A stretch of DNA of 56,884 nucleotides, from sequence record DRR723986_1321; one strand, written 5' to 3'. Shown here piece by piece: positions 1 to 49,876 of the stretch; within the stretch, counting starts at the first letter, position 1; the number at the start of each line of letters is the position of its first letter. The translations under genes were made by a program, and so were the position numbers. The notes below the pieces were generated by a model that saw only the letters and a program-made list of their open reading frames with translations, did no database searches and was not told the DNA's origin.

Positions 1-924
1 CAACTCGGGCGCCGTCATCAGCAGCGAGCCGTCAAGAGCAGACACGACCGAGATAGGCGTCAGTTTGAGGCCCTCTACCCGGCCGAAGGCCCGCATATGA
101 TCAATGATGGAGGCTGCGCGGCCAATCGACTGCATGACTCGCCCAATCTTACTTTTCACCTGGTCTGTATCGGTGATTTTTTCCGGACTCAGTAACAACT
201 TCTCCAGGTTCAGCATCACCAGCTTGATGTGATTGAGTGGCTGGTTTAACTCGTGCGCGATGCTCGCAGACAACTCGCCAAGATTGGCAAGCTTCGCTGC
301 CTGCATCAGCTGCTGCTGCCTTAACTTTTCCTCGGAAACATCCGCCAGCAAAACCGACATCTCACCGTCTGGCGAAGGGTCATGATCTAACCTGCCGAGA
401 ACAGCGAACTTTGCCCTGTCCGCATCACCAATCTGTACTTCTTTCGCTGCGCTACCGGAGCCTGCCACCAATGCCTGCTGGTAAACCGCGCGCTCCAGTG
501 TGCTGTCTTCGCCAACGAATTTCCTGAACGCCGAATTAGCCGTTATCAGGCGACTGCTGCCATCATAAGTTGCTAGGCCTATTGGCATGGCGCCAATCAG
601 CCAATGCATCCGCTCGGTAAGCGCCTCCGCCTCGCGCTGCTTCGCGGCCGCATGAGAGCGAGCGTTCTCGGCCGCATCCTGGCGACGACCAGCCATGGAG
701 GCAACAATTGCGAGCACCAGGGGTGCGGTATCAATAATCCAGTGTAAGGGCTGGGTCTGCTGCACCTCCACAACACTGGCCAGGCTCAGGGACAGACCCC
801 TGACAGCAAGGTCGAGGCTGGTCGCACAGACAGGAAAGACCAGGCCAAACAAGCAGCCGAAAAATGCATAGAGCGCGATGTTAGAGTCCAGCACTCGCCA
901 CACGACCGGGAACCGCCCCCTCAT
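1..924 (-). CDS. Membrane sensor histidine kinase, NtrB/DctB-like (C-terminus runs off the window)
   Basis: Absent from the ORF track; translated by hand from ATG 924 (RBS GGGAGG at 931-936). N-terminal TM region (...QPLHWIIDTAPLVL...), PAS-like middle, H-box QAAKLANLGELSASIAHELNQPLN in the same frame. Confidence 0.9.
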   Translation of the reverse strand, partial: MRGRFPVVWRVLDSNIALYAFFGCLFGLVFPVCATSLDLAVRGLSLSLASVVEVQQTQPLHWIIDTAPLVLAIVASMAGRRQDAAENARSHAAAKQREAEALTERMHWLIGAMPIGLATYDGSSRLITANSAFRKFVGEDSTLERAVYQQALVAGSGSAAKEVQIGDADRAKFAVLGRLDHDPSPDGEMSVLLADVSEEKLRQQQLMQAAKLANLGELSASIAHELNQPLNHIKLVMLNLEKLLLSPEKITDTDQVKSKIGRVMQSIGRAASIIDHMRAFGRVEGLKLTPISVVSALDGSLLMTAPEL

Positions 925-1030
925 CACAGCCCTCCCAGGACCTGCATCATTTAATGTCATACTCCGCCAGCAGCCAAGCTGCACCCGTTGACAGGATACG
1001 CCAGGCCCTGAAGGCTGAAATTGCGCATTT

Positions 1031-1046
1031 TGTGATGCCGCTCACA
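1031..1046. promoter_or_regulatory. CRP/Vfr-type binding site
   Basis: Perfect TGTGA-TGCCGC-TCACA with symmetric T/A flanks, in a divergent intergenic region. Confidence 0.65.
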
Positions 1047-1113
1047 AAACCAATGCAACACCCCTGAACCGCAGCGCGTACACTCTTCAAAGAAAGCCAC
1101 GGAGAACTCCGGC

Positions 1114-1428
1114 ATGTCCGGTAACACCAAAATCCACATCGACGAGCTACGCACTGGCCTTCATGTCTACAGACTTGAAAGCGGCCGGCGCGCTGTGCGT
1201 GTGCCCTTCTCCCCCGGTGGCGTAACGCTGACCTCGCAGGAGTCCGTCGACAGTATGCAGACATACTGCCGATGCATGGATATAGAACGTGTGTATGTCA
1301 GGGACGCTGCGACAGCGCCCCGCGCGACCGATGCGCCTGCTATGCGCAATACTGACTCTGGAATATTCGCGAATACCTTCACCGACACCCTGTCGGCGAG
1401 GCGCTGGGCGTCGGTGACGAAGCGATAG
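1114..1428 (+). CDS. Small protein resembling a stand-alone DUF3391 domain
   Basis: KIHIDELRTGLHVYRL...PF..GG..L.S.E.V..M..YC....VYV resembles the N-terminal domain of HD-GYP proteins; GGAG lies upstream of the ATG. Confidence 0.55.
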   Translation: MSGNTKIHIDELRTGLHVYRLESGRRAVRVPFSPGGVTLTSQESVDSMQTYCRCMDIERVYVRDAATAPRATDAPAMRNTDSGIFANTFTDTLSARRWASVTKR

Positions 1429-1476
1429 CTTCGTGAGGGGTTCAGCTTACCAGTGAGGACTCGAATATCTACTGGA

Positions 1477-2643
1477 CTAGCTTTTTTGGTCTGCAACCAT
1501 CGATGTATTACCGTTACGGGCCTGGGAAATCGGCACTGGGCCGACGAGCTCTCCCTCACCACTTCCTGCATCTGCTGATGTGCATTTTTTGTAGATCGCC
1601 TCAAAATCCCGATGGTGTCGCAGGAAGACGGCCAGCACTTCCGGGTTGAACTGAGAGACGCTGGTTCTGTCATCCCCGTTGCAAATGACATCAATGGCTG
1701 CTGAATGCGCCATCGTATCTTTATAAGGCCTCGACGAACGCAGCGCGTCATACACGTCGATCAGCGTCGTTACCGCCGCCTCAATTGGAATCTGGTTGCC
1801 GACCAGGCCTCGCGGGTAGCCGCTGCCATCGTAATACTCGTGGTGGCATAACGCGATCTTGGCGCCCATGCGCATTACCGGACTGCTGGACGACGACAGG
1901 ATCTGTGCACCCAGCGAGGTGTGGTCCTTCATTTCGGTGTATTCCGCTTCCGATAGCGAGCCCTTCTTGCCCAAAATGCCATCAGCAACACCAATCTTAC
2001 CCACATCGTGCAAGGGCGCTGCCAGCTCGATCGCCATGCAGCGATCCTCGGACCATCCCAGCAACTCGCCCATTCTACGGGCGTAGGCACCTATCCGCCT
2101 GACATGCTCACCGGTTGTAGAATCCTTGTGCTCAGCGGCGATGGCCAGGCACAGCAGGGATTCGCGCTGGGTATCGCGAATTTCCTCGGTCATTTCTTCA
2201 AGCAGCCCGCTTTTGATCGCCAGTTGCTCTTGCAGGGACAGCAACTCGCTGCGCTGCTGCTGCTCCTCCTTGAGTTCTATCTCGTTGCGGCGCAGCGCCG
2301 ACTTCAACTGATCAACCTGAACTGGCTTGAAGTGAAAGTCACTGATACCGTATTTGATTGCGGTAATCACCAGCGCCGGGTCCTGCTCGCCGGTCATGCA
2401 GATAGCGCGCAGGGCATCACCGCCAAGTTCGCCATCTCCCCGAACCTCCTGCAGCATCTCCAGCCCGGTTGTACCCGGCATATTGATGTCGAAAAGAACC
2501 AGGTCAATGGGCTCCCCGGACCGGATGAACTGCAGAGCTTCCTCCGCGCAGGACATAGGGTGACAGCCGTAGCCCCACGAGGAAATGGCATCGGCCAGCT
2601 CGAGGCGGGTGTCGGTATCATCTTCAACAAGCAGTACATTCAT
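1477..2643 (-). CDS. Response regulator with HD-GYP c-di-GMP phosphodiesterase output (RpfG-like)
   Basis: REC (VEDD, FDINMPG, KP), coiled-coil linker, then HDVGKIG, HHEYYDGSGYP and DVYDAL..SRPYK. Confidence 0.95.
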   Translation of the reverse strand: MNVLLVEDDTDTRLELADAISSWGYGCHPMSCAEEALQFIRSGEPIDLVLFDINMPGTTGLEMLQEVRGDGELGGDALRAICMTGEQDPALVITAIKYGISDFHFKPVQVDQLKSALRRNEIELKEEQQQRSELLSLQEQLAIKSGLLEEMTEEIRDTQRESLLCLAIAAEHKDSTTGEHVRRIGAYARRMGELLGWSEDRCMAIELAAPLHDVGKIGVADGILGKKGSLSEAEYTEMKDHTSLGAQILSSSSSPVMRMGAKIALCHHEYYDGSGYPRGLVGNQIPIEAAVTTLIDVYDALRSSRPYKDTMAHSAAIDVICNGDDRTSVSQFNPEVLAVFLRHHRDFEAIYKKCTSADAGSGEGELVGPVPISQARNGNTSMVADQKS

Positions 2644-2803
2644 GACGCGCTCTCCGGAAACCTCGACCTACGAGGCCCACTATTGAATCTACATCATAGC
2701 GCTGAAATCACTGCTGAAAATTTCGGGCGTGTTTAAAAGTATTAAACCCAGGGCGAGAGCCTCCCCCCCCTGAGCACTGGATCACAGCAGCGTTAGCCAG
2801 CCC

Positions 2804-3355
2804 TTAACCCACCAATTCTAGCTCAAAAGCAGACTCTTCACCGGCAGCGGATGAATCCGTCCGATTAATGGCGATCGCGACCGGCGTGGAAAAGTGCTCC
2901 GACAAACCGATTAGCAGGCCATGGACAAATGCTGTAAGCCCCAAACGATGACTCCGGTAAACAAACCTGTACTTCCCGTCGGCCAGCTGTTCAACATCAA
3001 AAACCGGCGGCCTGTAGCTGAGGAATGACCCCGAAATCTCCTGATGCATGGCGTTAATACTGTGCAGGAACTCTACCAGAGAATCGCCATGGGCCTCCAT
3101 CAACGCGGCATAGCTATCTGCGGCGACCCTGTGAATCCAGAACTTACCGAAATCCTGCAGTAATTCCTCCGCCGGCAGGTTACAGCACTCCGACGCCAGG
3201 CCCACCAGGTGATAGGTCGTTTCGTCCGGCTGGTTTCTCACCGCCATGAAGCTTTCTTCACCGTAACCGGCTTCAGCGATGATTTTGTCCCACTTGTCGG
3301 CGCCGTAAGTGACGGCGACAAACTCTCGCATGGATTTATTGATCAGTCCGTACAT
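2804..3355 (-). CDS. H-NOX heme NO-binding sensor protein
   Basis: MYGLIN start, proximal His (AMHQE), RPPVF and the YxSxR motif (YRSHR). Confidence 0.93.
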   Translation of the reverse strand: MYGLINKSMREFVAVTYGADKWDKIIAEAGYGEESFMAVRNQPDETTYHLVGLASECCNLPAEELLQDFGKFWIHRVAADSYAALMEAHGDSLVEFLHSINAMHQEISGSFLSYRPPVFDVEQLADGKYRFVYRSHRLGLTAFVHGLLIGLSEHFSTPVAIAINRTDSSAAGEESAFELELVG

Positions 3356-3630
3356 CGTACCCACCCGTTTCCAGCAATCCTTGCCTGGACCGCAAATTGT
3401 TCGTAATTGACTACTCGTTATCGGCGCAACGGCCTCATGCCATAACCACCCTCGATCGCTGGCCAGGCGTCCTCTCGCAACAGCGCTACGACTTGCCAGC
3501 GGGGACGCCTACTCGCTTGCAGCGAGAGAAACGCCCAGCAAGGAACCCCTATTATAACTGAACTTGCTGGCAGGTGACGCCAGGCCGCGAAACGCTGTAT
3601 CGGCCCTGGGTCCCCGCGCCTGGCTCACTA

Positions 3631-6324
3631 TCAGCTGGAATTCGCCGAACGGCTGACCTCGAGCTCACCGCCGTGCTCAACAAGCTGGATGGTGACCTCA
3701 AGGCCGCCATCGATATTAGCCGCCTGGATGGTTCCACCCATATCCTTGATGATGCCGTAACTGATCGACCCTCCGAGACCGGTACCCTCCCCCGCCAGCT
3801 TGGTGGTATAGAAGGGTTCGAAAATCTTGAACAGGTCACCTTCAGCTACCCCGCCACCATTGTCACTGACTCTGATCACCACTTTGCCATTGCGGGAGAA
3901 GGCCTCAATTAGCATGTGCGGCATATCATTGTTATCCACAGCGGCGTCTTTCGCATTGGAAATCAGGTTCAGGATTACCTGCTCCAGCCGGTTTGTTTGT
4001 GCCATGGCCTTGAGCGGGGTGATCGCCAGTCTGAGTTCCACATTCACCCCGAGCAGCTTAAGCTGCTCAGACGTCATCGAATAGGCGCCGCGGATAGCGT
4101 CCCTGACATCGACCAGAATCAGCTCCTCGGGAGCTACCCTACCATAGGTTCTCATGTGGTTAATGATTCTTGAGGCGCGATCAATCGCCCCCTTCATTCG
4201 TTGTACTTTCTTGAGGACCTGTTCCCTGTCGATCTCGTCTTTGCCGATTTGCGAACTGATATTGGCCTGGCACAGAGCGAGCACATTGAGCGGTTGATTG
4301 AGTTCGTGCGCTATTTCAGTGGACATCTGCCCCAGGGTAGCCAGCTTGGACGTCTGAGCAAGCTGAGCATCTTTTAACTTTTCTTCAGTTAAATCAACAA
4401 CTATCAGCCAGTGGCCGTCTGGCTTTCCCTGGGCGCCCATCCTGAGTACTTTCTTGATCGCCAGATTTCGCGTTGTGCCATCACCGGACAAAATATCAAG
4501 GCGCCGTTCAGCACGACCATGGAGCGAAAACTCCATCTGCTGCGACTCCCCGGTTATCGCCTCTAAGGCAGGCACGCTCAACTTGCAGATGTCCGCCAGA
4601 CCTTCATTCACCGAGACGATTTCACCACTTGCGTCCACAGCAAGCAGCCCGAGGGGAACCGTGGCGACGAGGCTCTCATAACTGTCGACCGAATCCCGCA
4701 TATTCCCGGCGAGCGCGTCTATAGCACCCAGCAGCGCCACAAATGCCTGCTGACTCTGGTCTGCCTCAACAACCATGGTCGGCCTGATAGCCGGAATCGA
4801 GAAATATTGATCCGGCGAAGCAGCCAGCGCCGCCGACTTTACCCCCAGTTCCTCCGAGAACTCCCTGTAAGGCCGCAGCGCGACCTGGATCATTGCCGCG
4901 CAGACCGCCATAAAAAGCGCATAGCCCGAAAATGATGCGATCATCATCAGGGAGAATTCATGCATCGATTGCAAATAATAGGACCATGCACCAACGGTCA
5001 TGGTTTGCCGAAAGGCCGTCTCGCCTGGCAAGCTTGGAGCTCCTGAGTGGAACTGGGCAAAACTGGAGCCTGGTAAAAGTGCAGGGGAAATGGCGTTATT
5101 TCGATGCAATCGAGTGTCGCTCACCCAGAATGACAGCTCACCATCACCGTACTCCTTCCGGTAGGTACGTGTTGATGGCAAATCAAAAAGCGCCCCACGT
5201 GGCCTCGGGTCGGCAGCATCGTCCGGCGTAATATCAAACTGGAAGCCTTTAACCGACATGAAGGCCGACAGGGACCCTGCGTCTTCGAAGACAAACTCAA
5301 TAACGGTGTCATAGCTGCTTCTCACCAGCAGGGCCCACGGAGCGTTAGCTGAACCAAGGTCCTGAGCAACGTAATAGGACCGTGCTTGCGGAACGGCCAG
5401 ACTCTTTTTCACCAGTTCACTTTCGGAGACAAACTGCTCAGCATCGTCTTGAAATGATGCGCCAAGCCGATAGACATGCACATCCAACAGGCCATCGATT
5501 TTGAGCGCAGCTGCCGCAGACCGGATGTCCCACGTCTTGGCAAGCGCCACATTCTGGGTATTGGTGCTCAGCAGTACATCATCGGCCTTATCCAGCAGCC
5601 GACCGATGAATGCCTGGCGCTGTTCGGAGACATGCTCCTTGGCCACGAGAACCAGATCCCGCTCCCGGTAACTGGCATCGACGGATGCTATGCCACAGAT
5701 CATCAGCGCAATACCCACACCCAGGATGCTCTGTAAGAAACCCCTGATGGGATAGCTTGCTGTAAAAAAGGGAACCGTCTTGCCAGCGGATCTTGAATAG
5801 AAGTTGATGGTCTTGTCGATGAGCTCAAAAATTATGAGGCAGAAGAACAGGTCCAGAATCTTCCTGGACACTCGCAGCACGGTGACGTCAAGTTGCTGGT
5901 AGCTCACATAAATGGCAATTCCCATCAGTGGCAGCAGGATAAAGTAGCAGAAAACAATGGCCTCACTGACGGTGAGCCCTACCGCACGCTGGGTGAGATA
6001 CCTGATTATCATGGCCTCTGCGAGGACAAATCCCACGACCGCGAGCGGCAATTCTGTCGTCGCGACCAGAACCAGCAGCGAGGAAATATACAGCGCGACG
6101 GAGAAACGGAATTCCGTTCTTGACGTGCGCGTGCACAGGAAGAACAGAAACGTCTCGCCGAGGTAGACAGGGATAGAATAAACAAACAGTGGAAAAAACA
6201 CTGCAAGCACGGCAGCGAAGACCAAGGCAATGATGATCGCGTACCTTGCCCGAGCCTCATTACTCGACAGCGCGGCGGCAAAGCCCTCCTGAAGGCCCGC
6301 TTTTTGCGTGGCTACATCATTCAT
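3631..6324 (-). CDS. Multi-TM sensor histidine kinase with PAS, HisKA and HATPase domains
   Basis: Hydrophobic N-terminus, H-box IAHELNQPLN, N-box NLISNAKDA, DNGGG, FEPFYTTK, GTGLG. Confidence 0.93.
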   Translation of the reverse strand: MNDVATQKAGLQEGFAAALSSNEARARYAIIIALVFAAVLAVFFPLFVYSIPVYLGETFLFFLCTRTSRTEFRFSVALYISSLLVLVATTELPLAVVGFVLAEAMIIRYLTQRAVGLTVSEAIVFCYFILLPLMGIAIYVSYQQLDVTVLRVSRKILDLFFCLIIFELIDKTINFYSRSAGKTVPFFTASYPIRGFLQSILGVGIALMICGIASVDASYRERDLVLVAKEHVSEQRQAFIGRLLDKADDVLLSTNTQNVALAKTWDIRSAAAALKIDGLLDVHVYRLGASFQDDAEQFVSESELVKKSLAVPQARSYYVAQDLGSANAPWALLVRSSYDTVIEFVFEDAGSLSAFMSVKGFQFDITPDDAADPRPRGALFDLPSTRTYRKEYGDGELSFWVSDTRLHRNNAISPALLPGSSFAQFHSGAPSLPGETAFRQTMTVGAWSYYLQSMHEFSLMMIASFSGYALFMAVCAAMIQVALRPYREFSEELGVKSAALAASPDQYFSIPAIRPTMVVEADQSQQAFVALLGAIDALAGNMRDSVDSYESLVATVPLGLLAVDASGEIVSVNEGLADICKLSVPALEAITGESQQMEFSLHGRAERRLDILSGDGTTRNLAIKKVLRMGAQGKPDGHWLIVVDLTEEKLKDAQLAQTSKLATLGQMSTEIAHELNQPLNVLALCQANISSQIGKDEIDREQVLKKVQRMKGAIDRASRIINHMRTYGRVAPEELILVDVRDAIRGAYSMTSEQLKLLGVNVELRLAITPLKAMAQTNRLEQVILNLISNAKDAAVDNNDMPHMLIEAFSRNGKVVIRVSDNGGGVAEGDLFKIFEPFYTTKLAGEGTGLGGSISYGIIKDMGGTIQAANIDGGLEVTIQLVEHGGELEVSRSANSS

Positions 6325-6991
6325 AATCCGTTGTTCTCGCGGGCTCTGACTGCCCGTTAGCCTGCTGAAACTTGGCCTCGCTATTGATCAATTTGATGAG
6401 TTCTGACGCTCGCTGCACCTGCCTTTGCACCCGCTCCAATTTGGCCTTGACCTTCTCCAGGTCTACCTCAGGCGCCTCGATCAGGCTCAGCAGATTCTGT
6501 GACGCGAGGGCTATCGTGTTAAGCGGCTGATTCACATCGTGAGTCAAGCGGGAAATGGTTTCTCCCAGATTGGCCAGCCTCTCGAGATGCTCGGGTTGTT
6601 CCTTGGCCCGTATCAAACTGTCAACATTGCTCATAACCAGGACGTAATGCGTTGCGGGCTGATCGCGGCGTCCATCGCCCAGGCTAACAGGCGTGACCAG
6701 GATCAGGTGCTGCTGGTCATCCTGTGAATCTCCCGCCAACAACACGTCCTGTGCCACCTCGCTACCAGAGCGGACAGCCTCATCAAAAACCAATTTGAGC
6801 GAGCGCAGAACATTACGGGTGATCGCTGGCGGTGGCGACGGCTCTGCTGACGGCTGTTCCTCGGCCGTGACTCCAAATAGTTGCTCGCCGGTTTGGCGCC
6901 CAAGCAACTCCTCGGCGGACCGATTAAGAAAAAGGATGTGGCCCTGGTCGTCCAGGACACACAATATCGCGTGGTTGATCGCCAAATCCAT
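6317..6991 (-). CDS. PAS + HisKA (DHp) protein lacking the ATPase domain
   Basis: PAS start (LDDQGHILFLNRSAEELLG) and H-box LANLGETISRLTHDVNQPLN; stops before any N/G boxes and overlaps the start of the next kinase. Confidence 0.8.
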   Translation of the reverse strand: MDLAINHAILCVLDDQGHILFLNRSAEELLGRQTGEQLFGVTAEEQPSAEPSPPPAITRNVLRSLKLVFDEAVRSGSEVAQDVLLAGDSQDDQQHLILVTPVSLGDGRRDQPATHYVLVMSNVDSLIRAKEQPEHLERLANLGETISRLTHDVNQPLNTIALASQNLLSLIEAPEVDLEKVKAKLERVQRQVQRASELIKLINSEAKFQQANGQSEPARTTDYE

Positions 6992-7307
6992 CAACTGACC
7001 CCGAGTAAGCTAAAGCGCCAGGCGGCCTTTGGCGCACAGCGTTTGCCTGCCAGGACAGCCGTTATTCCGGCCAGTTCCTGCCGAACCTTGTGAGCGTCAG
7101 TCTCAGTCATAACTGTGGCACCTTCTAATCATCCGGGACGCCCAACACAAGACTTGGCTGGAAGTCCTGTCCAACCCATTCCAGTCACCCGCGATGGCGC
7201 TAGCGGGCCCTTGCCCGTCCCCTGGAAACACTATTTCGCCAGCAGGCGCTGCCAGCAATTTAGCAGAGTCTACTATGTTTGGAAGCCGGTACCGCGACCC
7301 AAACTAT

Positions 7308-7328
7308 TGTTTAAAACATTTTTAAACA
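7308..7328. promoter_or_regulatory. Inverted repeat, candidate operator
   Basis: TGTTTAAAA-CAT-TTTTAAACA in a divergent promoter region, upstream of a TAGAAT -10-like element. Confidence 0.45.
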
Positions 7329-7425
7329 CACCACAGTCTGCCAACAGGTAGAATACGCACAAATACACAAGGCCACGCGGGCTCACCTGCAAGGTGATGA
7401 AAACACCTGCTGCGAGGACTAATCC

Positions 7426-7782
7426 ATGATCATACTCGTCGTTGATGACGAACTCGAAATCGCCGAAGAATTAGCCGATTACCTGAGCGCAGGAGACCGG
7501 GTTGTGCACTTCACCGCGAATGCGGCAGAGGCACTGGACATGGCTCGGACAATCCAACCCGACCTCCTGATTACTGATATGCGCATGCCAGGCATGGATG
7601 GCGCGGAGCTGGTGCGCCGGGTTTTCGCACATGACGGCTGTAAGAAAACTCGCTTCATAATTGTATCCGGACACCTCGGCGCCTCGGAGGCACTGGCTCA
7701 TTTACATGACATCCCCTACACTCTCATCCCGAAACCGCTGAACATGGACCAGCTACATGCCGAAGTGGCAGGATCTAATTGA
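7426..7782 (+). CDS. Single-domain response regulator
   Basis: VVDDE, ITDMRMPG, VSG, KP; 118 aa. Confidence 0.92.
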   Translation: MIILVVDDELEIAEELADYLSAGDRVVHFTANAAEALDMARTIQPDLLITDMRMPGMDGAELVRRVFAHDGCKKTRFIIVSGHLGASEALAHLHDIPYTLIPKPLNMDQLHAEVAGSN

Positions 7783-7885
7783 ACGAGCTCATCTCACCTT
7801 TCTGGTGCCCGCTAAGCGCCTAGGACCCCCGCGCGGCGACGCGCCACCTACCCCCCACCCTGCCGCGACGACCCGCTGACTCACC

Positions 7886-8617
7886 ATGAGCTTCGACAAA
7901 CCTGTAGTACTGGTCCTTGAGGATGACAGTGACCTGGCCAGCGAGCTGACTGATACGCTCGAAGAGGCCGGTTTTGAGGCTGTCTCATGCTCCACGATCC
8001 GCAACTTCTGGGCCTACATCAGCAATCACGAGGTTGATATCCTGATCATTGATCTCGGCCTGCCCGACGGGTGGGGCGCAGATGTGGTGCGGGAAGTCCG
8101 GGCCAAGAGCGATGTGCCGATAATCATCACCTCGGGACGCTCAGAGGTCGAAGAGCGTGTGGCGGGCATCGAGATAGGCGCAGACGACTATCTGGGCAAA
8201 CCCTACAACGGCCGGGAAATCGTTGCCAAGCTGAGCCGCTTCCTGACCAGGACGAGGGGCACCAAGTTCTCCTCCCGGGTCAGCCAGCTGGCCGGAGCCG
8301 AGGTGTTCAGGTTCAGTAACTTCGCGCTCGATACGGGCGCCATGTCATTGACCTCGCCCGCCGGCGAAGACATCCCGTTGACCACCTTTGAGTTCCTCAC
8401 GCTCAAGGCGCTGGTTGAGCGGCCCAACAAGGTCCTTACCCGAGCCTCGCTGGTGGATTTCGTCCATACGGAGAACTGGCACGGCTCAGAGCGCACCATC
8501 GACAATCTGATCAGCCGGGTCCGCACCAAGCTGTCTCGCAGCAGCGATCAGAACTTTATCAAAACGGTCAGGGGTATCGGCTACATGTTCAGCTCCAGCG
8601 ATATGACGCGAGGCTGA
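7886..8617 (+). CDS. OmpR/PhoB-family response regulator
   Basis: REC domain plus winged helix (RTIDNLISRVRTKL, IKTVRGIGY). Confidence 0.95.
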   Translation: MSFDKPVVLVLEDDSDLASELTDTLEEAGFEAVSCSTIRNFWAYISNHEVDILIIDLGLPDGWGADVVREVRAKSDVPIIITSGRSEVEERVAGIEIGADDYLGKPYNGREIVAKLSRFLTRTRGTKFSSRVSQLAGAEVFRFSNFALDTGAMSLTSPAGEDIPLTTFEFLTLKALVERPNKVLTRASLVDFVHTENWHGSERTIDNLISRVRTKLSRSSDQNFIKTVRGIGYMFSSSDMTRG

Positions 8618-13833: not shown

Positions 13834-13993
13834 AGGGTTCTCGGCGGCCACTGGCTGCGCCCTGCTGCTTCGCGCAGGCGCATAGCGGGCCAGGCACAGC
13901 TGCCACGGTCTGTTCGCGCTTGCCGGTTATGCCAATACGGCATCGGCCGGTGTAGTATTGCGGGGAAGAGACACGACCGGAGTCACCCGCAGC

Positions 13994-14770
13994 ATGAGCG
14001 AGACCCGCCTTTACCTCTCACTGCTCCCGCAGGCGCTGGTTGCCTCCATGCTGCCACCGGAGGCATTTGGCAGTTACTACGCCGTGGGTAGTAATCTGCA
14101 CAACCAGGGCGAGGCAATCTTCTTCGAAATTGATCCGGCCTTTCGCTCCGATGACTTCCCGTTCAAGCTGATCGAGGAAAAATGCATCCCCGGCCCCGGG
14201 GGCGAGCCCAAGAAGTCTGTCTACCTCGCTATCTACCGCGTACTGTCGCGGATCCCCGTGTCAGCGCTGGGCGACCTTTACCTGGTGACCCGGGACGGCC
14301 TCACCCTGCGTATCCAGCGCGCTGCGTACCAGCCGCGGGAAACGCAGACGCTGCATCTTTACCAGGAACTTTGCCCGATCACCCCGCTGGTGGGCAGCAC
14401 GCTGGCCGCGGATCAATTCTGCCGTTTTATCACCAACCCGGCCCAGCCGATCCATGTGCCACGTATCGTGTTCTCCGAGTTGTCCTTGCATGAGCTGGCG
14501 ACAGATCCGGTAAACGGCGGCAGCGATGACCTGCCCTACCGGGAAATAGAACACCTGAGAGATTGCCTGCAGCAGCTGAAAGCCACCAACAAGCAAACCA
14601 AGCTGGTGCGCAACCAACTGCGCGATGGGCTGCTGTACCGCATGATCAAAGGCGGCTTTTACGTCGGCGATCAACAGGACTTCGCGTTCTATGCCTATCC
14701 CTCGCCCGAGGAACTGGAGCGCACCCACCGGACTTGGTGGCGCTCTGCACAGCACCATTCATCCCACTGA
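13994..14770 (+). CDS. Hypothetical cytoplasmic protein
   Basis: Long ORF with typical codon usage (MSETRLYLSL...), 59 bp upstream of the pyrophosphatase gene. Confidence 0.75.
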   Translation: MSETRLYLSLLPQALVASMLPPEAFGSYYAVGSNLHNQGEAIFFEIDPAFRSDDFPFKLIEEKCIPGPGGEPKKSVYLAIYRVLSRIPVSALGDLYLVTRDGLTLRIQRAAYQPRETQTLHLYQELCPITPLVGSTLAADQFCRFITNPAQPIHVPRIVFSELSLHELATDPVNGGSDDLPYREIEHLRDCLQQLKATNKQTKLVRNQLRDGLLYRMIKGGFYVGDQQDFAFYAYPSPEELERTHRTWWRSAQHHSSH

Positions 14771-27861: not shown

Positions 27862-29137
27862 CCAGGCCCTCCATACAGGCGTCAAAGGCCGCGAGAAAAG
27901 CCTCGGCCTGCTCTCGCCCGAACACCAGCGGCGGACGGATCTTCACCACGTTGTTATAAGCCCCGGCGCAGGAGAGCAGGAAACCGCTGTCCTTGAGGCG
28001 CTCAGCAAGCTCCCGGGCGGTGACAGGATCAGGCTCCCTGCTCGCCGGGTCGCGGACCATCTCGATGCTGATGAACAGTCCGCTACCACGGACGTCACCT
28101 ATTACCGCGTGCGGTTTGCTGCGCACACGGAGTTCCCCCAACAACAGCGCACCGATTTCAGCAGCACTGCGTACCAGGTCCAGGCGCTCGATCTCATCAA
28201 TCACCGCCATCCCCACCGCTGCCTGCAGAGGCGTGGACGAAAACGTGTTGAAGTAGCCGGTAGCGGCACGGAAGGCCTCCACCTGTTGGCGGCTGGCAGC
28301 CGTGGCTGCCAGCGGTAACCCGTTGCCCATGGGCTTACCCATAACCACAATGTCGGGCTGGAAACCTTCGCGCTCATAGCCCCACCAACGACCGGTGCGG
28401 CCGTAACCCGACTGCACCTCGTCGGCGATCATCAAACCGCCCTCCCGGTGGACCAGCGCGGTAAGGTCCGCCATGAAACCCGCGGGGATGTCCGGCAAGC
28501 CCTCATTGGCGAAGATGGAACAGGCAATCAGTGCGGCGAATCCATGACCGTTAGCCTTCAGCTCACGGATGGCCGCCGCAGCCCGCTCAAGATAAACAGC
28601 CCCCAGTGCTTTATCGTCCAGTCCCAGGGTCACCGGGCGATAGCAATCCGGGTAGGGAAAACCGCGGATTTCACTGCCCGCGGGTGAATCGCCGCCTACG
28701 CTGCTTAGCGCGCCAACCAGCCCGGCGTTACCGTGGTAGGCCGAATCGGTACAGACGATGCCACGCTGGCCGGTGACGATGCGCGCCATCTGCAGCGCCA
28801 CATCATTGGCCTCGGTGCCACTGCAGCTGAACACAACGCTCTCGATACCGTGGTGATGCAGCCCGGCAAGCCGCTCAGCAAATGCAATAATGCCCTCATG
28901 CAGGTACCGGCTGTGCACATTGAGGGTGGCCTGCTGCTCCGCCATTGCTCGCACCACCGCCGGGTTGCCGTGACCGACACAGGGAACGTTATTGTACAGA
29001 TCGACATAGCGACGATCGTCGGCGCCATAAAGGTAAGCGCCCTCCCCCCTGACAATCTCGATCGGCGTGCGATAAAACAGTTCCGCACCGGCACCGAGGG
29101 CGAGATCCCGGCGCTCCTTCAGGGTCAGCGCACTCAT
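27851..29137 (-). CDS. Class III PLP enzyme, AGXT2L/phospho-lyase-like
   Basis: DLYNNVPCVGH, HSRYLH, SGTEAND, IADEVQSGYGR, GKPMGNG, YFNTF, KIRPP. Confidence 0.9.
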   Translation of the reverse strand: MSALTLKERRDLALGAGAELFYRTPIEIVRGEGAYLYGADDRRYVDLYNNVPCVGHGNPAVVRAMAEQQATLNVHSRYLHEGIIAFAERLAGLHHHGIESVVFSCSGTEANDVALQMARIVTGQRGIVCTDSAYHGNAGLVGALSSVGGDSPAGSEIRGFPYPDCYRPVTLGLDDKALGAVYLERAAAAIRELKANGHGFAALIACSIFANEGLPDIPAGFMADLTALVHREGGLMIADEVQSGYGRTGRWWGYEREGFQPDIVVMGKPMGNGLPLAATAASRQQVEAFRAATGYFNTFSSTPLQAAVGMAVIDEIERLDLVRSAAEIGALLLGELRVRSKPHAVIGDVRGSGLFISIEMVRDPASREPDPVTARELAERLKDSGFLLSCAGAYNNVVKIRPPLVFGREQAEAFLAAFDACMEGLDGR

Positions 29138-29712
29138 GGTACGGCCCTGGACAAGCTGATCGCCCCGCGCACCTGTCCCAAGGCATAGCCGGTAGCCCTG
29201 TCATCCGGGTAGTACTCGCGCAAGGCATCCAGGACCGCCGGTGCCAGGTTCTGCCCGTGACAGGTCAGGCAGAGCCCTTCCACGCCCTGGGCCTGCATAT
29301 AGCGGTACCGGTTGCCCTGCCGTTCGCCAAAATGCAGGTCGGCGGGGTCATCTCCGGCCCGCTGGCGAGCGTCGAACTCGGCCAGAACGCCAAGCTCCCA
29401 CTCATCGGGCACCGCGCGACTGGCGTTTCTCTGCTGCAGGCTCACCCGCCTGACCAGCCAGCCAGAGCTGGCGCTGAGAGCATCGGCCAGGGTAGGCGCA
29501 ACATCCGCACAGACAGCAATCGCATGGGTCGGCCCGCCCTCTTTCATTGCCTGCTGCAACTGTGGCTTGAGCCGATTGACGAAATCGTGGACCAGCCTGC
29601 GGGCCTCCTCCGCCAGAGCCTGTTCCGGCGCTGCTTGTCCGAAGCCTGGCACCGGGAACAGCCATAACAGAGAAAGGAGTGGTAACACTCTGGTGACATT
29701 CAAGATACGCAT
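29134..29712 (-). CDS. DUF3365/Tll0287-like exported c-type heme protein
   Basis: Signal peptide, AIAVC, RN...PDEWE, CLTCHG, GQVRGAIS. Confidence 0.85.
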   Translation of the reverse strand: MRILNVTRVLPLLSLLWLFPVPGFGQAAPEQALAEEARRLVHDFVNRLKPQLQQAMKEGGPTHAIAVCADVAPTLADALSASSGWLVRRVSLQQRNASRAVPDEWELGVLAEFDARQRAGDDPADLHFGERQGNRYRYMQAQGVEGLCLTCHGQNLAPAVLDALREYYPDDRATGYALGQVRGAISLSRAVP

Positions 29713-29997
29713 TCGTCTTTGCCTTGTAAGCTTCGCCAAAACCAATCACAGCATCTCGCGGCTGGCATACTATTGACCCAGCGCAAGCGATCGCTGCTGG
29801 GGTCAAGTTTACTACCGGACAGCCCGCCTACACCAAAAATTAAGCTCATCACAGCGACACGTGAGACAGCAGCGTGTCCATGGTAAGCATCCACAGCGCA
29901 TCGCGTGCTCAGACCGAGCCGGGTTATCGGGCCGCCCTTGATTCAATAGCAAGCTCGGAGCATCATTGAAGATGACATTGTACGCACCGGCCCACCC

Positions 29998-44198: not shown

Positions 44199-46286
44199 TT
44201 ACTTGGCCCTGACCACCGTAGTGGCGGTGGACTGATCGAGCAGCTCGCCATTTGAGTAAAGCTCGACAACCCAATCTATCGTGCTCTCCTCCAGGGGGGC
44301 GGTCCATTCATGGGTGAACCGGTCGGACTGACCGGGCTCGATGCCATCAAATGTGCCGGTGAAAGTATCCACGCCATTGGCCGTGATGATGTAACTCCCC
44401 GAGCCAATCGCTGGGGCGTTGTCACCCACCAGTACTTTCACCGTCACCTTGTCCACATCACCGGTGAAGGCCTTGGTCGGCACCTTGAACTGCTGCACGG
44501 TTGCCTCGGTTATCGGCGGCAGCACCTCTTCGAACTCATTGATGACGAGTTGGGCGCTGTACAGTGCTGTCGACTTGCGATCACCCTTGATGTACACGGC
44601 AAGGTCGAAGTCTGTTGTCATCGGTAAACCGTTTGAGGTGATGCCAATACAGTCTTCATCCGCTGCGCAGTACTCGTCTATAGTCACCAGCGGGTCACCA
44701 AGTGCGTCTCTGGGCAGGCCCACCCAACCACTGGAGTAACGCAGAGGTGAGTTGTCCTCACCACCGGCCCAGTCCAGCAGGTTGATGACGGTCGTGACCG
44801 GCGTACCCACCTCATATTTGATGTTGTCATTGGTGAACGGCGGTGCACTGCACTCGACCGCCGGAATTTCCAGACCCGGAATATCCTGGCCGAACTTGTT
44901 GGCCTTCAGGCGCCAGCGTGGGCCGGATACCAGCTGCAGGTTGCGGCTGGAAAGTTCTTCCGGCGTCAGTGGCAGCGGAGTGCCTACAAAATTGAAGGTA
45001 TCCGTGGCGCCTGCGTCCACGTACGACCATTCGAAGGGATCGCGGTCGATGGTGGTGTAGAAGGCGTTGGTGTACGCCTCAACCAGGTCGGAAGAGAAGA
45101 CCTGGGGCGGCGCAATGCCTGCGGGCGCACCGGCATACTCTGCATTTTTAAAGATCGTAATACCTGCTTCGACCGGTGCGGGGTCCTCAGAACCCTCTTC
45201 CGTTTCCAGGTAATCACCGTCACCTTCCCAGCAGTCTTTGGTGGCTAACCAGTCACCGCCACCTGTGACGCTGTAGGACGGTTTGCGCCCGGTCGCTGCC
45301 TCGTTCTCCAGGTCTTCCGGTCGCAGCTGGTCATTCGGGTTATTGGTGATCCAGTGAGTGACTACCAGCTTTGCGCTGTTAATCAGGTAGTTGGCACCCG
45401 GCTCTTTCCACTCAGGTGGCAGCGGAATACGCGCGTACAGGCGAATATCGTTAGGCCGCTTGATCAGGCTGCCCCAGCGGTACAGCGGCTTGCCGTCATC
45501 CTTGAGCGTGACCGAATAGTCACCACTCGCTGCAATATCGTTTAGTACCGTGGTGTTGTCGTTGGCGTAAATCTGGCCGCCGTCACCCGGAAGTGGCACG
45601 ACACTTTCAAGCACGACGTCGGTTTTTTCACCGTCGACAAGAATTTTCAGAACATCATCCAGGCTAGCGTTCGCACAGTCATAGCTTTCACCACCTTCCG
45701 GGAAGCTGAGTATGGCCTGTTGGTTATTGAGGAAATCGAAGAAAAAATACGGCACCACTTCGTGGCAGCTCAGCACGTGCTCCATCACCGTGTAGTGTTC
45801 CGTGGAACACTTGATCGAGGTGCCTCCGAGGCCCTGACACCAGGTACCCAGCGGCGGCTTGACCTTGTAGGTGTCGGTCGCGGCGTTAGATATTTTCAAA
45901 CCGATGATCTCGCCGCCTTCCACGATATTGCCGACAAAACCTTCCGCGAAGTCATCATCACGGGTCTTGGGCTCGGCACCCAGAAAATCCACCACGTTAA
46001 AACCGAACTCGGAGTCAACCGGGTACAGCCAAACGCCCTGCTTGTCGGTAAACGGCTGGGCCTCTGCCGGGCAACTGCCTTCGCAGAGCGCCTCCGCATC
46101 CTCGCGAGTCGGTATTGTTCCGCCGATGGTTGCGCCACTGAAATCTGTCTGCACATCATTAACAGAAAACGTATGTAGCTCTGATTCATAGGGCGCCGCC
46201 ACTTCCTGGGCCTGCAGCGCAGCCGTGGCTAGCGCGACACTGGCGCTGGCAATGGCCAGGATCATTGGCTTCTTGAGATAGTTCAT
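44199..46286 (-). CDS. Large acidic secreted hypothetical protein with a C-terminal Ig/CARDB-like domain
   Basis: Signal peptide, AAGGAG RBS, 695 aa, D/E-rich, several Cys, beta-sandwich-like tail. Confidence 0.8.
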   Translation of the reverse strand: MNYLKKPMILAIASASVALATAALQAQEVAAPYESELHTFSVNDVQTDFSGATIGGTIPTREDAEALCEGSCPAEAQPFTDKQGVWLYPVDSEFGFNVVDFLGAEPKTRDDDFAEGFVGNIVEGGEIIGLKISNAATDTYKVKPPLGTWCQGLGGTSIKCSTEHYTVMEHVLSCHEVVPYFFFDFLNNQQAILSFPEGGESYDCANASLDDVLKILVDGEKTDVVLESVVPLPGDGGQIYANDNTTVLNDIAASGDYSVTLKDDGKPLYRWGSLIKRPNDIRLYARIPLPPEWKEPGANYLINSAKLVVTHWITNNPNDQLRPEDLENEAATGRKPSYSVTGGGDWLATKDCWEGDGDYLETEEGSEDPAPVEAGITIFKNAEYAGAPAGIAPPQVFSSDLVEAYTNAFYTTIDRDPFEWSYVDAGATDTFNFVGTPLPLTPEELSSRNLQLVSGPRWRLKANKFGQDIPGLEIPAVECSAPPFTNDNIKYEVGTPVTTVINLLDWAGGEDNSPLRYSSGWVGLPRDALGDPLVTIDEYCAADEDCIGITSNGLPMTTDFDLAVYIKGDRKSTALYSAQLVINEFEEVLPPITEATVQQFKVPTKAFTGDVDKVTVKVLVGDNAPAIGSGSYIITANGVDTFTGTFDGIEPGQSDRFTHEWTAPLEESTIDWVVELYSNGELLDQSTATTVVRAK

Positions 46287-48060: not shown

Positions 48061-48846
48061 CTAGCGCACCAGGGTTGTGCCCCCGTCAACGGCGAGGATC
48101 TGCCCGGTAATAAAGGCACCGGCGCGACTGGCCAGCATGATGGCAACGCCGCTGATGTCATCCTCTTCACCCCAGCGATGCAGCGGGATATAGCCTATTT
48201 CAGCCTCGTACTGCGCCGTGTCCTGGCTGGCGTACTCGGTCATCCGGGTAAAGAAGCGCCCGGGGGCGATTGCATTGACCCGGATATGCTGGTCGGCAAG
48301 AGCGACGGCCAGATTACGCGTCACCTGGTGAATCGCCGCCTTGCTTGGCGCGTAGCTGAAGGTATCGGTCGCCGCGGCAATGCCGGCAATGGATCCGATA
48401 TTAATGACGCAGGCGGTGTTGTCGGCGGTCGCGCGGGCGCTCAACAGTGGGATCATTTCCCGGGTCAGGAAGAAAGGCGCTTTCACATTCAGGTCCATGA
48501 CCTTGTCCCAGCCCAGTTCGGGAAACTCCCCCAGTGGCGCGAGCCAGCCAACCCCGGCATTGTTTACCAGCACATCCACAGCGTCTTCCCGCTCACTGAG
48601 GGTGGCGACCAACTGGCTGATTTCAGCCATGGAACTGATGTTCCCGGGCAAGGCAATGCATTCACCCTCGACTTCTGCCGTCAGTTGCGCCGCAGCTTCG
48701 AGGCACTCGGGCGCCTTGCGTGCGGTAATGTAAACCCGGGTGGCACCAGCGGCGAGGAAGCCCCGCGCCATGAAGTAACCCAGGCCCCGCGAGCCACCGG
48801 TAACGACACACACCTTGTCGCGCAGAGAAAACAATTGATCAAACAT
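48061..48846 (-). CDS. SDR oxidoreductase
   Basis: TGGSRGLG, NNAG, YAPSK. Confidence 0.93.
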   Translation of the reverse strand: MFDQLFSLRDKVCVVTGGSRGLGYFMARGFLAAGATRVYITARKAPECLEAAAQLTAEVEGECIALPGNISSMAEISQLVATLSEREDAVDVLVNNAGVGWLAPLGEFPELGWDKVMDLNVKAPFFLTREMIPLLSARATADNTACVINIGSIAGIAAATDTFSYAPSKAAIHQVTRNLAVALADQHIRVNAIAPGRFFTRMTEYASQDTAQYEAEIGYIPLHRWGEEDDISGVAIMLASRAGAFITGQILAVDGGTTLVR

Positions 48847-48867
48847 GTCAGGGCGTCCTGCTGTGAG

Positions 48868-49305
48868 CTAGGCGTCAGCCGCCTGCTGGGCGATAGCGCG
48901 GATGCGGGCGACCATCGCGCGCAAGCCGTTACCCCGGGTCGGGGAGAGGTAGTTAAGCAACTCGAGGCGTTCAAAGTAGGCGTCGATATCGAAGGCGAGG
49001 GCCTGTTGCGGCGTCTTGTTATTGTACGCCGCCAGCACCACACCGAGCAGGCCTTTGACAATAAAGGCATCGCTGTCCACCGCAATCTGCAGGCGGCCGT
49101 CCTCCAGCGAGGTATCGATCCACACCTGGCTCTGGCAGCCGCGTACCAGGCGGTCCTCGGTATGCAACTCCGCTGCCATGAGCGGCAGTTCCCGACCCAG
49201 TTCGATGATGTACTTGTAGCGGTCTTCCCAGTTGTCGAAGAAACCCAGCGTGTCGATGATATCGTCGCTGTCTATCGAATACCCGAAGGGGTTGTTGTCA
49301 GCCAT
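48868..49305 (-). CDS. sufE: Cysteine desulfuration protein SufE
   Basis: WEDRYKYIIELG, VRGCQSQVW, SPTRGNGL. Confidence 0.93.
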   Translation of the reverse strand: MADNNPFGYSIDSDDIIDTLGFFDNWEDRYKYIIELGRELPLMAAELHTEDRLVRGCQSQVWIDTSLEDGRLQIAVDSDAFIVKGLLGVVLAAYNNKTPQQALAFDIDAYFERLELLNYLSPTRGNGLRAMVARIRAIAQQAADA

Positions 49306-49333
49306 GCCGGCGCCCTGTACTTGCGTCATCGGA

Positions 49334-49876
49334 TCAGAAGAACATGCCCGTTTCGAGCTGCGCTTCCTCGGACATCATTTCGCGTTGCCAGGGTGGATCG
49401 AATACCAGTTGCACGGCAACCTCCCTCACATTGGGTACCAGTGCGACCCGGTGTTCGACATCACCCACCAGTACCGGGCCCATACCGCAGCCGGGGGCCG
49501 TCAGTGTCATATCGATTTCCACCCGGCCCTGCTGCTGGTCGATTGCCACCCGGTAGATCAGGCCGAGATTGACCAGGTCCACAGGGATTTCAGGATCGAA
49601 TACCGTATGCAGGCCCTGCCAGACCTGCGCCTCGTCGATCTCGCCACTGGCAGGGGGCTCAAACTCGAGCCGGAGGGGTTCCAGCCCGAGCGCATCGGCA
49701 TCGGTCCCGTCTACCCGCACCATGTTGCCGTTATAGGTGAGGGTATAGTTGCCGCCCAATGACTGGGTCAGGGTGACGAAGGTATGGGCGGGAATGGTCA
49801 CCTTGTCCCCTACCGGCACCAGGCGCGCGGGGCAGTCCCGGTTAGTCGTCAGTATGGTGCGTTCCTGGGCGCTCAT
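49334..49876 (-). CDS. sufT: Fe-S assembly protein SufT (DUF59)
   Basis: DPEIPV, TLTAPGCGMG, FDPPW. Confidence 0.9.
   Translation of the reverse strand: MSAQERTILTTNRDCPARLVPVGDKVTIPAHTFVTLTQSLGGNYTLTYNGNMVRVDGTDADALGLEPLRLEFEPPASGEIDEAQVWQGLHTVFDPEIPVDLVNLGLIYRVAIDQQQGRVEIDMTLTAPGCGMGPVLVGDVEHRVALVPNVREVAVQLVFDPPWQREMMSEEAQLETGMFF

Follow-up and report, generated by a model that had tools for sequence, protein, structure and literature searches.

The DNA analysed here, called the window, is a stretch of 56,884 nucleotides from sequence record DRR723986_1321, and its first 8,617 positions hold a cluster of signalling genes with an H-NOX gene at its centre. Eight open reading frames (ORFs) of positions 1-8617 were judged to be real, and six of them are co-conserved (Table 1). 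The minus-strand genes are transcribed in the order K3, K2, H-NOX, REC-HD-GYP and K1, K1 to K3 being three proteins with a histidine kinase H-box. The H-NOX protein was read from the ATG of MYGLIN, the start given by the ORF finder being at 3364. An earlier note, made from the letters of the window, had described an H-NOX, an intact REC-HD-GYP protein, a single-domain receiver, an OmpR-type regulator and a neighbouring full kinase spanning the membrane several times, all of which were borne out by Pfam, a check of residues or hydropathy. Comparison with related loci, set out below, suggests that this H-NOX may have exchanged its usual partner for the membrane kinase K2, with the breakdown of cyclic diguanylate (c-di-GMP) as an output.

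Table 1. Genes of positions 1-8617 of the window and the evidence for their assignment
Feature	Position	Strand	Evidence
K1, kinase truncated at the window edge; neighbour, not a conserved part	1..984	-	Pfam HisKA; two-segment membrane domain, PAS-like region
DUF3391-like ORF, 104 amino acids, stand-alone; not a conserved part	1114..1428	+	Pfam 14.4 bits, below cut-off; Atlas 0.92
REC-HD-GYP, RpfG type	1477..2643	-	Pfam REC, HD_5; intact motifs
H-NOX, Nostoc/sGC type, diverged clade "type A", 183 amino acids	2804..3355	-	Pfam HNOB, E 4.5e-40
K2, membrane histidine kinase, 897 amino acids	3631..6324	-	Pfam HisKA and HATPase; about 6 membrane segments
K3, PAS-HisKA remnant, 225 amino acids	6317..6994	-	Pfam; alignment to longer orthologues
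Single-domain receiver, divergent from K3	7426..7782	+	Pfam
OmpR-type response regulator	7886..8617	+	Pfam

The window DNA was matched by marine metagenome runs and was compared with contigs of four runs from three studies. Contigs of X1 and X2 covered 30 of 30 bins of the window with no joints listed, and one X1 contig spanned the passage from H-NOX to REC-HD-GYP and agreed with the window in every one of 991 letters. A contig from a different study tied the start of K3 to its upstream DNA, reaching 53 letters inwards and 139 outwards, and the 3' end of K3 was spanned by just 28 letters among the contig pieces displayed. At the places tested, the cluster is no assembly chimera. A scan for promoters and terminators gave no excess over shuffled sequences (2 against 3.5 expected, and 11 against 7.2), and a repeat search in the seven intergenic stretches revealed nothing common to them. 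The third-position G+C of the cluster genes was 0.60-0.69 (0.77 for the OmpR-type gene), against 0.70-0.78 for six other genes of the window (8973-54992), which is consistent with an acquired or weakly expressed island.

The H-NOX protein scored 137.7 bits against Pfam HNOB (cut-off, 25.5 bits; E 4.5e-40). Its nearest relatives were Nostoc Alr2278 (E 6e-34) and the β1 subunit of soluble guanylate cyclase (sGC), and Shewanella SO2144 was far from it (E 1e-6), so that the comparison with the HnoX systems of Shewanella and Vibrio drawn in the earlier note concerned the wrong type of H-NOX. The predicted structure (pLDDT, 96) resembled PDB 2o09 (Nostoc Alr2278) with a TM-score of 0.89. The protein retains the proximal His104, Pro116-Pro117 and Tyr133-x-Ser135-x-Arg137, and has lost the near-invariant family residues Leu9, Met12, Leu37, Met39, Tyr42, Asp105 and Arg106. 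With its relatives it forms one long-branched clade, type A (n = 9; SH-aLRT 97-99 in quick trees without bootstrap), between whose lineages H-NOX identity is 33-59%. All nine members keep an open frame and the haem residues His104 and Arg137, and all nine have Phe, and so no distal Tyr, at the position of Nostoc Met144 (Phe143 of the window protein). By a published rule, an H-NOX without a distal Tyr is selective for nitric oxide (NO) and does not bind O2 (PMC8738867). Since the distal position is occupied by Phe, this rule implies that the window H-NOX should bind NO and not O2.

Co-conservation was examined in 306 genomes of the family of G184, the genome closest to the window by SufD (63%) among 60 genomes tested. 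To judge from size and gene content, this family is probably the Halieaceae; a family chosen via SufB (9 genomes) showed other layouts and was set aside for the one chosen via SufD. H-NOX matches were obtained in 79 of the 306 genomes, and 78 loci from 74 genomes (E <1e-30) were examined, five weak matches being left out. The gene after H-NOX encoded a hybrid kinase carrying H-NOBA in 73 of these loci, was cut off in one and different in one; the remaining three had a window-like order. The full order of the window, in which the OmpR-type and receiver genes diverge from K3-K2-H-NOX-REC-HD-GYP, was present in G220, G288 and G283 (3/306), and the sensor region of K2 had matches in three genomes of the family, all at this locus and exactly those with a type-A H-NOX. 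A metagenome scan with a single H-NOX query gave no match; a scan with a four-row H-NOX alignment gave five contigs (L168-L172) with the whole or part of the order. The closest to the window was L168 (H-NOX, 49%; REC-HD-GYP, 60%; PAS-HisKA of K2, 63%), where the contig stretch stops at K3, and L169-L172 were about 90% alike to G283, so that the type-A loci together represent about four lineages. No orthologue of the cluster was found among 80 H-NOX loci of many phyla. Among 401 genomes sampled from the order there were 13 H-NOX matches (E 1e-40), of which six had already been examined and 7/7 others precede an H-NOBA-type kinase, with no further type-A locus. In the relatives, H-NOX starts 34-45 bp past the stop of K2 or overlaps it (L168), and REC-HD-GYP follows 178-197 bp further on.

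The earlier note had proposed a synteny search and had named lack of co-conservation as grounds for refuting its reading of the cluster. The core genes are co-conserved, with the K2 sensor in the same 3/306 genomes; K1 and the DUF3391-like ORF, which it had also counted in, are not conserved parts. As side observations, four relatives have a second intact REC-HD-GYP gene past the OmpR-type gene (L134:17146-18219, L141:1350-2423, L166:1334-2452 and L170:1791-2909), and relatives also hold a small ORF there predicted to be lipoprotein-like, where the window has a subtilase.

The ordinary operon of the family consists of a LuxO-like REC-sigma54 activator, an H-NOX and a kinase with a weak HNOBA match, HisKA, HATPase, REC and Hpt. 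This three-gene operon is common (L090-L165, e.g. L095:8024-12047; both flanking genes in 70/78 loci) and may constitute a self-contained NO-to-sigma54 relay, of which no description was found in the literature searched.

In the 80 loci of many phyla, 75 next ORFs could be scanned, and 56 of them matched HNOBA at E 1e-8. The others comprised five gammaproteobacterial hybrid kinases, four GGDEF proteins, two other kinases, one second H-NOX, two unrelated proteins and five ORFs without a match, which were probably read in wrong frames; in none of the 75 was the next gene an HD-GYP gene. Two H-NOBA profiles were made, with 65 H-NOBA regions from the family and 20 from elsewhere as input, and four held-out controls scored 84-155 bits. 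Four of the five gammaproteobacterial hybrid kinases were tested with these profiles and all four were positive. With Pfam HNOBA and the two profiles, no H-NOBA match was found in the six frames of the window or in the type-A proteins (best score, 1.8 bits).

The H-NOX helix that faces the partner in sGC also differs in the type-A clade. In human sGC, His107 and Asp106 on the same helix touch the coiled coil and PAS, and the substitution D106A impairs activation (10.1101/731679); a loop near residues 40-41 likewise plays a part in activation (PMC3212528). Position 106 of the window protein, two residues past the proximal His and equivalent to sGC β1 His107, was Arg or Lys in 134 of 135 partnered H-NOX proteins (56/56, 5/5 and 73/74 in the three sets) and in none of the nine clade members, of which six have Glu, including the window protein, and the others Gln, Gly and Ser. 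Tyr42 was present in 133/135 partnered proteins against 0/9 clade members. Seven further partnered proteins, judged by eye, had Tyr42 in 7/7 and Arg106 in 6/7. Among the other loci, two orphan sGC-type H-NOX genes without a signalling neighbour were noticed (L072:10001-10552 and L064:10001-10567), one of them with Arg at the position of the proximal His, and a Bdellovibrionota genome has a tandem pair of H-NOX genes ahead of a kinase (L045:309-1578).

The H-boxes of the three kinases read HELNQPL in K1 and K2 and HDVNQPL in K3, and all are HisKA. We take them to be of FixL/DctB flavour within the NtrB-like group; the NCBIfam FixL and AtoS models matched these kinases below their cut-offs. The helices after the phospho-accepting His are alike in K1, K2 and K3, and because of this likeness each of them could signal to the same receivers. 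K2 was laid out by hydropathy and Pfam as about five N-terminal membrane segments, an extracytoplasmic region, one more segment, PAS, HisKA and a full HATPase; its sensor region had no Pfam match. An orthologue of K2 lies directly upstream of H-NOX in L134, L141, L166, L168, L169 (in part), L170, L171 and L172, and K2 appears to be the likeliest partner of the H-NOX.

K3 has no membrane segments and no HATPase, retains the phospho-accepting His, and its stop overlaps the start of K2. The orthologues that occupy its place elsewhere are membrane kinases of 910-919 amino acids with HATPase, to whose residues of about 550-755 it aligns with 26-32% identity, the cuts lying near domain borders; positions 6991-7430 showed no trace of the missing N-terminal part. 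Judged from these alignments, the K3 of the window is a trimmed remnant of such a membrane kinase and not a natural ATPase-less type. Three related H-box proteins had been counted in the earlier note, two membrane kinases and one without ATPase. The H-boxes, K2 and the missing HATPase of K3 stand as described; no ATPase is seen in the part of K1 inside the window, and an ATPase-less kinase is not a standard part of the locus.

K1 was tried as a conserved part of the cluster and rejected. It runs off the window edge, with no ATPase seen in the part inside, and its orthologues are complete kinases of 422-476 amino acids. The N-terminal domain was found in 11/306 family genomes; ten loci were examined, and seven of them held whole-protein orthologues with HATPase, all outside the examined H-NOX loci: six do not share a contig with the H-NOX locus of their genome, whether of the window-like or the ordinary layout, and the seventh lies at a distance of 530 kb. 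The membrane domain of K1 also occurs in a different kinase near L170/L172. This two-segment domain (610-912, minus strand) has the pattern G..FG..FP...HW(I/V)ID(T/S)AP, read as HWIIDTAP in K1, and is fused to kinases, GAF proteins and STAS proteins elsewhere (P0003-P0008; L170:14753-17350; L173-L182). No Pfam match was obtained for it and Atlas gave unnamed clusters only; it is a candidate for an undescribed sensor or anchor domain.

In REC-HD-GYP, 22 of 22 checked receiver, metal-binding and substrate-binding positions are present (among them Asp52, Glu171, HD, HHE..GYP and RPYK), and they are kept in 17/17 family members but for one Lys-to-Arg change. The N-terminal Glu and the RxYK motif are reported to mark three-metal, c-di-GMP-specific HD-GYP proteins, and some members with the motifs, such as RpfG, show little activity (10.1101/2021.11.05.467447). 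The protein is predicted to be an active three-metal c-di-GMP phosphodiesterase. Its orthologues (49-60%) lie directly downstream of H-NOX in every type-A locus; those of the single receiver (50-52%) occupy the same place in L134, L141, L166 and L170, and those of the OmpR-type regulator (63-65%) are likewise at the same place. No EAL protein was found among 43 ORFs of the window scanned with Pfam.

The choice of kinase by a receiver is set by its alpha-1 helix. Those of the three window receivers (IAEELADYL, TRLELADAI and LASELTDTL) scored 17-26 against each other, a level reached by 0/81 background receivers (taken from loci L001-L089, with no close kin of the window); for the rest of the domain, 13-60 of the 81 did so. 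Other alpha-1 helices are carried by the LuxO-like and hybrid-kinase receivers. As the three receivers share a like kinase-recognition helix, they may belong to one branched pathway. The DUF3391-like ORF was tried as a further conserved part and rejected, as no tblastn match below E 0.1 was obtained in 182 loci. Its naming in the earlier note agrees with a language-model search (Atlas; DUF3391, 0.92, in 29 of 30 matches), and its Pfam match stays below the cut-off (14.4 against 27.8 bits; E 0.056).

The reading preferred here is that a duplicated H-NOX switched its partner to K2, or to the K2/K3 pair. Phosphorylation of the three receivers by these kinases would then govern the breakdown of c-di-GMP. 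In favour of it, no H-NOBA lies in the locus, the docking helix is changed, the gene order is conserved with K2 and the three receivers share a like helix. The reading is given a probability of about 0.48, and type-A H-NOX likely passes a gas signal on to a circuit that senses at the membrane. The haem of the H-NOX (proximal His, YxSxR, no distal Tyr) would bind NO and carbon monoxide but not O2. In the H-NOX/kinase pairs that have been studied, NO-bound H-NOX lowers kinase activity (PMC8846402; PMC8738867), and by analogy with them, from which the direction of the effect is borrowed, NO-bound H-NOX would dock on the cytoplasmic PAS, coiled coil or HisKA of K2 or K3 and lower autophosphorylation. 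Less phosphorylated REC-HD-GYP would then break down less c-di-GMP, so that NO would lead to more c-di-GMP and promote attachment. Outside ligands would reach these kinases by way of their membrane sensor regions, the OmpR-type regulator would be the transcriptional output, and the lone receiver might serve as a phosphate sink or relay. The trimmed K3 of this strain, if still acting, could only be a phospho-acceptor, a phosphatase or a heterodimer partner of K2.

A more specific form of the partner switch is put forward tentatively, at less than even odds. In it the docking helix is charge-reversed and the H-NOX captured by a pair of multi-pass kinases, an outside ligand is weighed against intracellular NO, the three-way output is insulated from the older H-NOX/LuxO-like relay, and K3 survives here as a PAS-HisKA adaptor. 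If true, it would represent a mode of H-NOX docking without H-NOBA or HnoK, which was not found in the literature searched.

Several points weigh against the partner switch. The clade is one fast, long-branched lineage, so that the nine losses count as a single event or a small number of them, and the changes of the docking helix could be put down to general drift. Three of the nine clade members (P0009, P0011 and P0012) are known without gene context, and the partnered H-NOX of L185 has Gln at position 106. Asp105 was rejected as a general partner marker, being not kept in 56/56 partnered H-NOX of other phyla and present in L168; because it is not general, the docking argument is carried by position 106 and Tyr42 alone. 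The gap between K2 and H-NOX is 275 bp in the window, and that between H-NOX and REC-HD-GYP 160 bp. In the loci called type B, REC-HD-GYP lies just upstream of the ordinary operon (28/78 loci), with a K2-like membrane kinase as well in 17. The adjacency of K2 and REC-HD-GYP to type-A H-NOX may therefore be inherited, and since type-B loci place these genes by the ordinary operon, the window locus looks like a rearranged relative of them; an origin of the clade from type-B loci was neither rejected nor demonstrated (p-AU 0.41). Lastly, G220, G283 and G288 all also carry the ordinary LuxO-like/H-NOX/H-NOBA-kinase operon, and an orphan H-NOX acting on the usual kinase has been listed for Saccharophagus degradans, where two H-NOX proteins act on one kinase (PMC8738867).

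These last points favour an alternative, considered unlikely, in which the second H-NOX is an orphan acting in trans on the H-NOBA hybrid kinase elsewhere in the genome and tuning the LuxO-like relay, its neighbours forming a separate membrane-sensing c-di-GMP pathway. All three type-A genomes hold the operon on which it could act, and its place in the cluster could be ancestral given the type-B loci. Against such an action stand the loss of the basic residue of the docking helix in 9/9 clade members, mostly to Glu, and the close coupling to K2, kept over about four lineages despite H-NOX identities of 33-59%.

It is also rather improbable that the H-NOX, co-expressed with a membrane-kinase c-di-GMP pathway, has no signalling partner left and is drifting as a passenger or acts as a buffer for haem, NO or redox state. 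The long branches, the loss of several near-invariant residues, the rarity of the locus (3/306 genomes) and its trimming in this strain, with the K3 remnant and the lone DUF3391-like ORF, would fit such drift; the haem-binding residues and open frame kept in 9/9 clade proteins, and the gene order maintained at the same range of identities between lineages, speak against it. Least probable is direct binding of H-NOX to REC-HD-GYP with a change of phosphodiesterase activity beside the kinase input: although a partner gene follows H-NOX in most loci, REC-HD-GYP does so in every type-A locus, and H-NOX governs cyclases or phosphodiesterases in Legionella, Shewanella woodyi and Dinoroseobacter (PMC8846402), the two genes are 160-197 bp apart in all loci measured, and the protein is without H-NOBA or an added docking domain and has the same REC-coil-HD-GYP build as paralogues away from type-A H-NOX.

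The partner switch to K2 was then set beside known systems. The closest in sequence is the sGC-type H-NOX/H-NOBA effector (Nostoc Alr2278, sGC β1), with the same fold, proximal His, Pro-Pro and YxSxR motifs and no distal Tyr. In contrast to it, the window locus is without the H-NOBA found in 56/75 next genes of other phyla and 73/78 family loci, and the type-A H-NOX has lost the basic side chain of residue 106 and Tyr42. In the HnoX-HnoK-HnoB/HnoC/HnoD network of Shewanella oneidensis and Vibrio cholerae an H-NOX likewise lies beside a kinase, and the output branches to a transcription factor, a phosphodiesterase of c-di-GMP and one more receiver (PMC8846402; PMC8738867), as it may in the window. 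The window differs in its type of H-NOX, in the multi-pass neighbouring kinases, in having REC-HD-GYP and no soluble HnoK as the next gene, and in an intact HD-GYP output in place of REC-EAL with a degenerate HD-GYP; in HnoD, HD is changed to SE and HHE to QLE (10.1101/2021.11.05.467447). A Shewanella-like layout of REC-EAL, Shewanella-type H-NOX, short kinase and HD_5 protein was seen in another family (L086:7011-11277 and L087-L089), where the kinase and the HD protein begin with the same helix, RAL.RER.ARK.AE.LLE..SREL, hinting that this H-NOX may dock on both.

S. degradans resembles the type-A genomes in its dual H-NOX (SDE_3804 and SDE_3557 on kinase SDE_3803), of which one lies apart from the usual kinase (PMC8738867); the type-A copy differs in its changed docking helix and in its constant position after a membrane kinase. 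The ordinary operon of the family, which is the paralogous locus, resembles H-NOX-HqsK-LuxU-LuxO of Vibrio harveyi and V. parahaemolyticus (PMC8738867), and the window locus has neither a LuxO-like gene nor a hybrid kinase. NosP-NosK-NosR of Burkholderia pseudomallei also joins a haem NO sensor, a kinase and a REC-HD-GYP output, its sensor being a FIST protein and not an H-NOX (PMC12570481). The NCBIfam NosR model was the best match of the window REC-HD-GYP, at 139 bits against a cut-off of 400. In Pseudoalteromonas atlantica, the regulator HarR is reportedly an HD-GYP protein, and a soluble kinase is said to come directly after the Shewanella-type H-NOX. The genes PATL1532-1534 of this species encode an H-NOX, a kinase and a response regulator acting on c-di-GMP (PMC8738867).

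As these sources describe them, the wiring of NO sensor, kinase and HD-GYP and genomes with two H-NOX are already known. The distinct NO-to-c-di-GMP phosphorelay of the earlier note is supported in part: a relay from the kinases to three receivers is backed by the common alpha-1 helix, and the output from an NO sensor through a kinase to HD-GYP is itself not new (PMC12570481). No paper tying H-NOX to multi-pass membrane kinases, and none on H-NOX in the window's family, was found among the papers listed from the literature searched, which was short on subscription papers and supplements. The stand-alone H-NOX proteins that have been studied, as far as the reviews consulted list them, act on an adjacent kinase or on a cyclase/phosphodiesterase (PMC8738867; PMC8846402), and a 2022 review recorded no high-resolution structure of a bacterial H-NOX with its partner at that time (PMC8738867). 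G220, G283 and G288, which hold an ordinary H-NOX/H-NOBA-kinase pair and a diverged copy, offer a natural swap experiment on the change of a sensor's partner. If the switch is true, a marine plankton group, for which the papers listed gave no account of NO sensing, would combine membrane signals with NO that comes from algae or low-oxygen particles; if it is false, this would be an ordinary c-di-GMP locus with several kinases, and its H-NOX an orphan.

Elsewhere in the window, three ORFs were without a Pfam match, at 44199-46286 (minus strand, 695 amino acids), 13958-14770 (plus strand, 270 amino acids) and 48178-49572 (plus strand, 464 amino acids); the last, which overlaps a dehydrogenase gene on the other strand, is probably a shadow frame. 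The ORF at 29134-29745 (minus strand) was assigned by Pfam to the Tll0287-like (DUF3365) proteins, a family described as c-type-haem Cache domains (10.64898/2026.02.01.703092).

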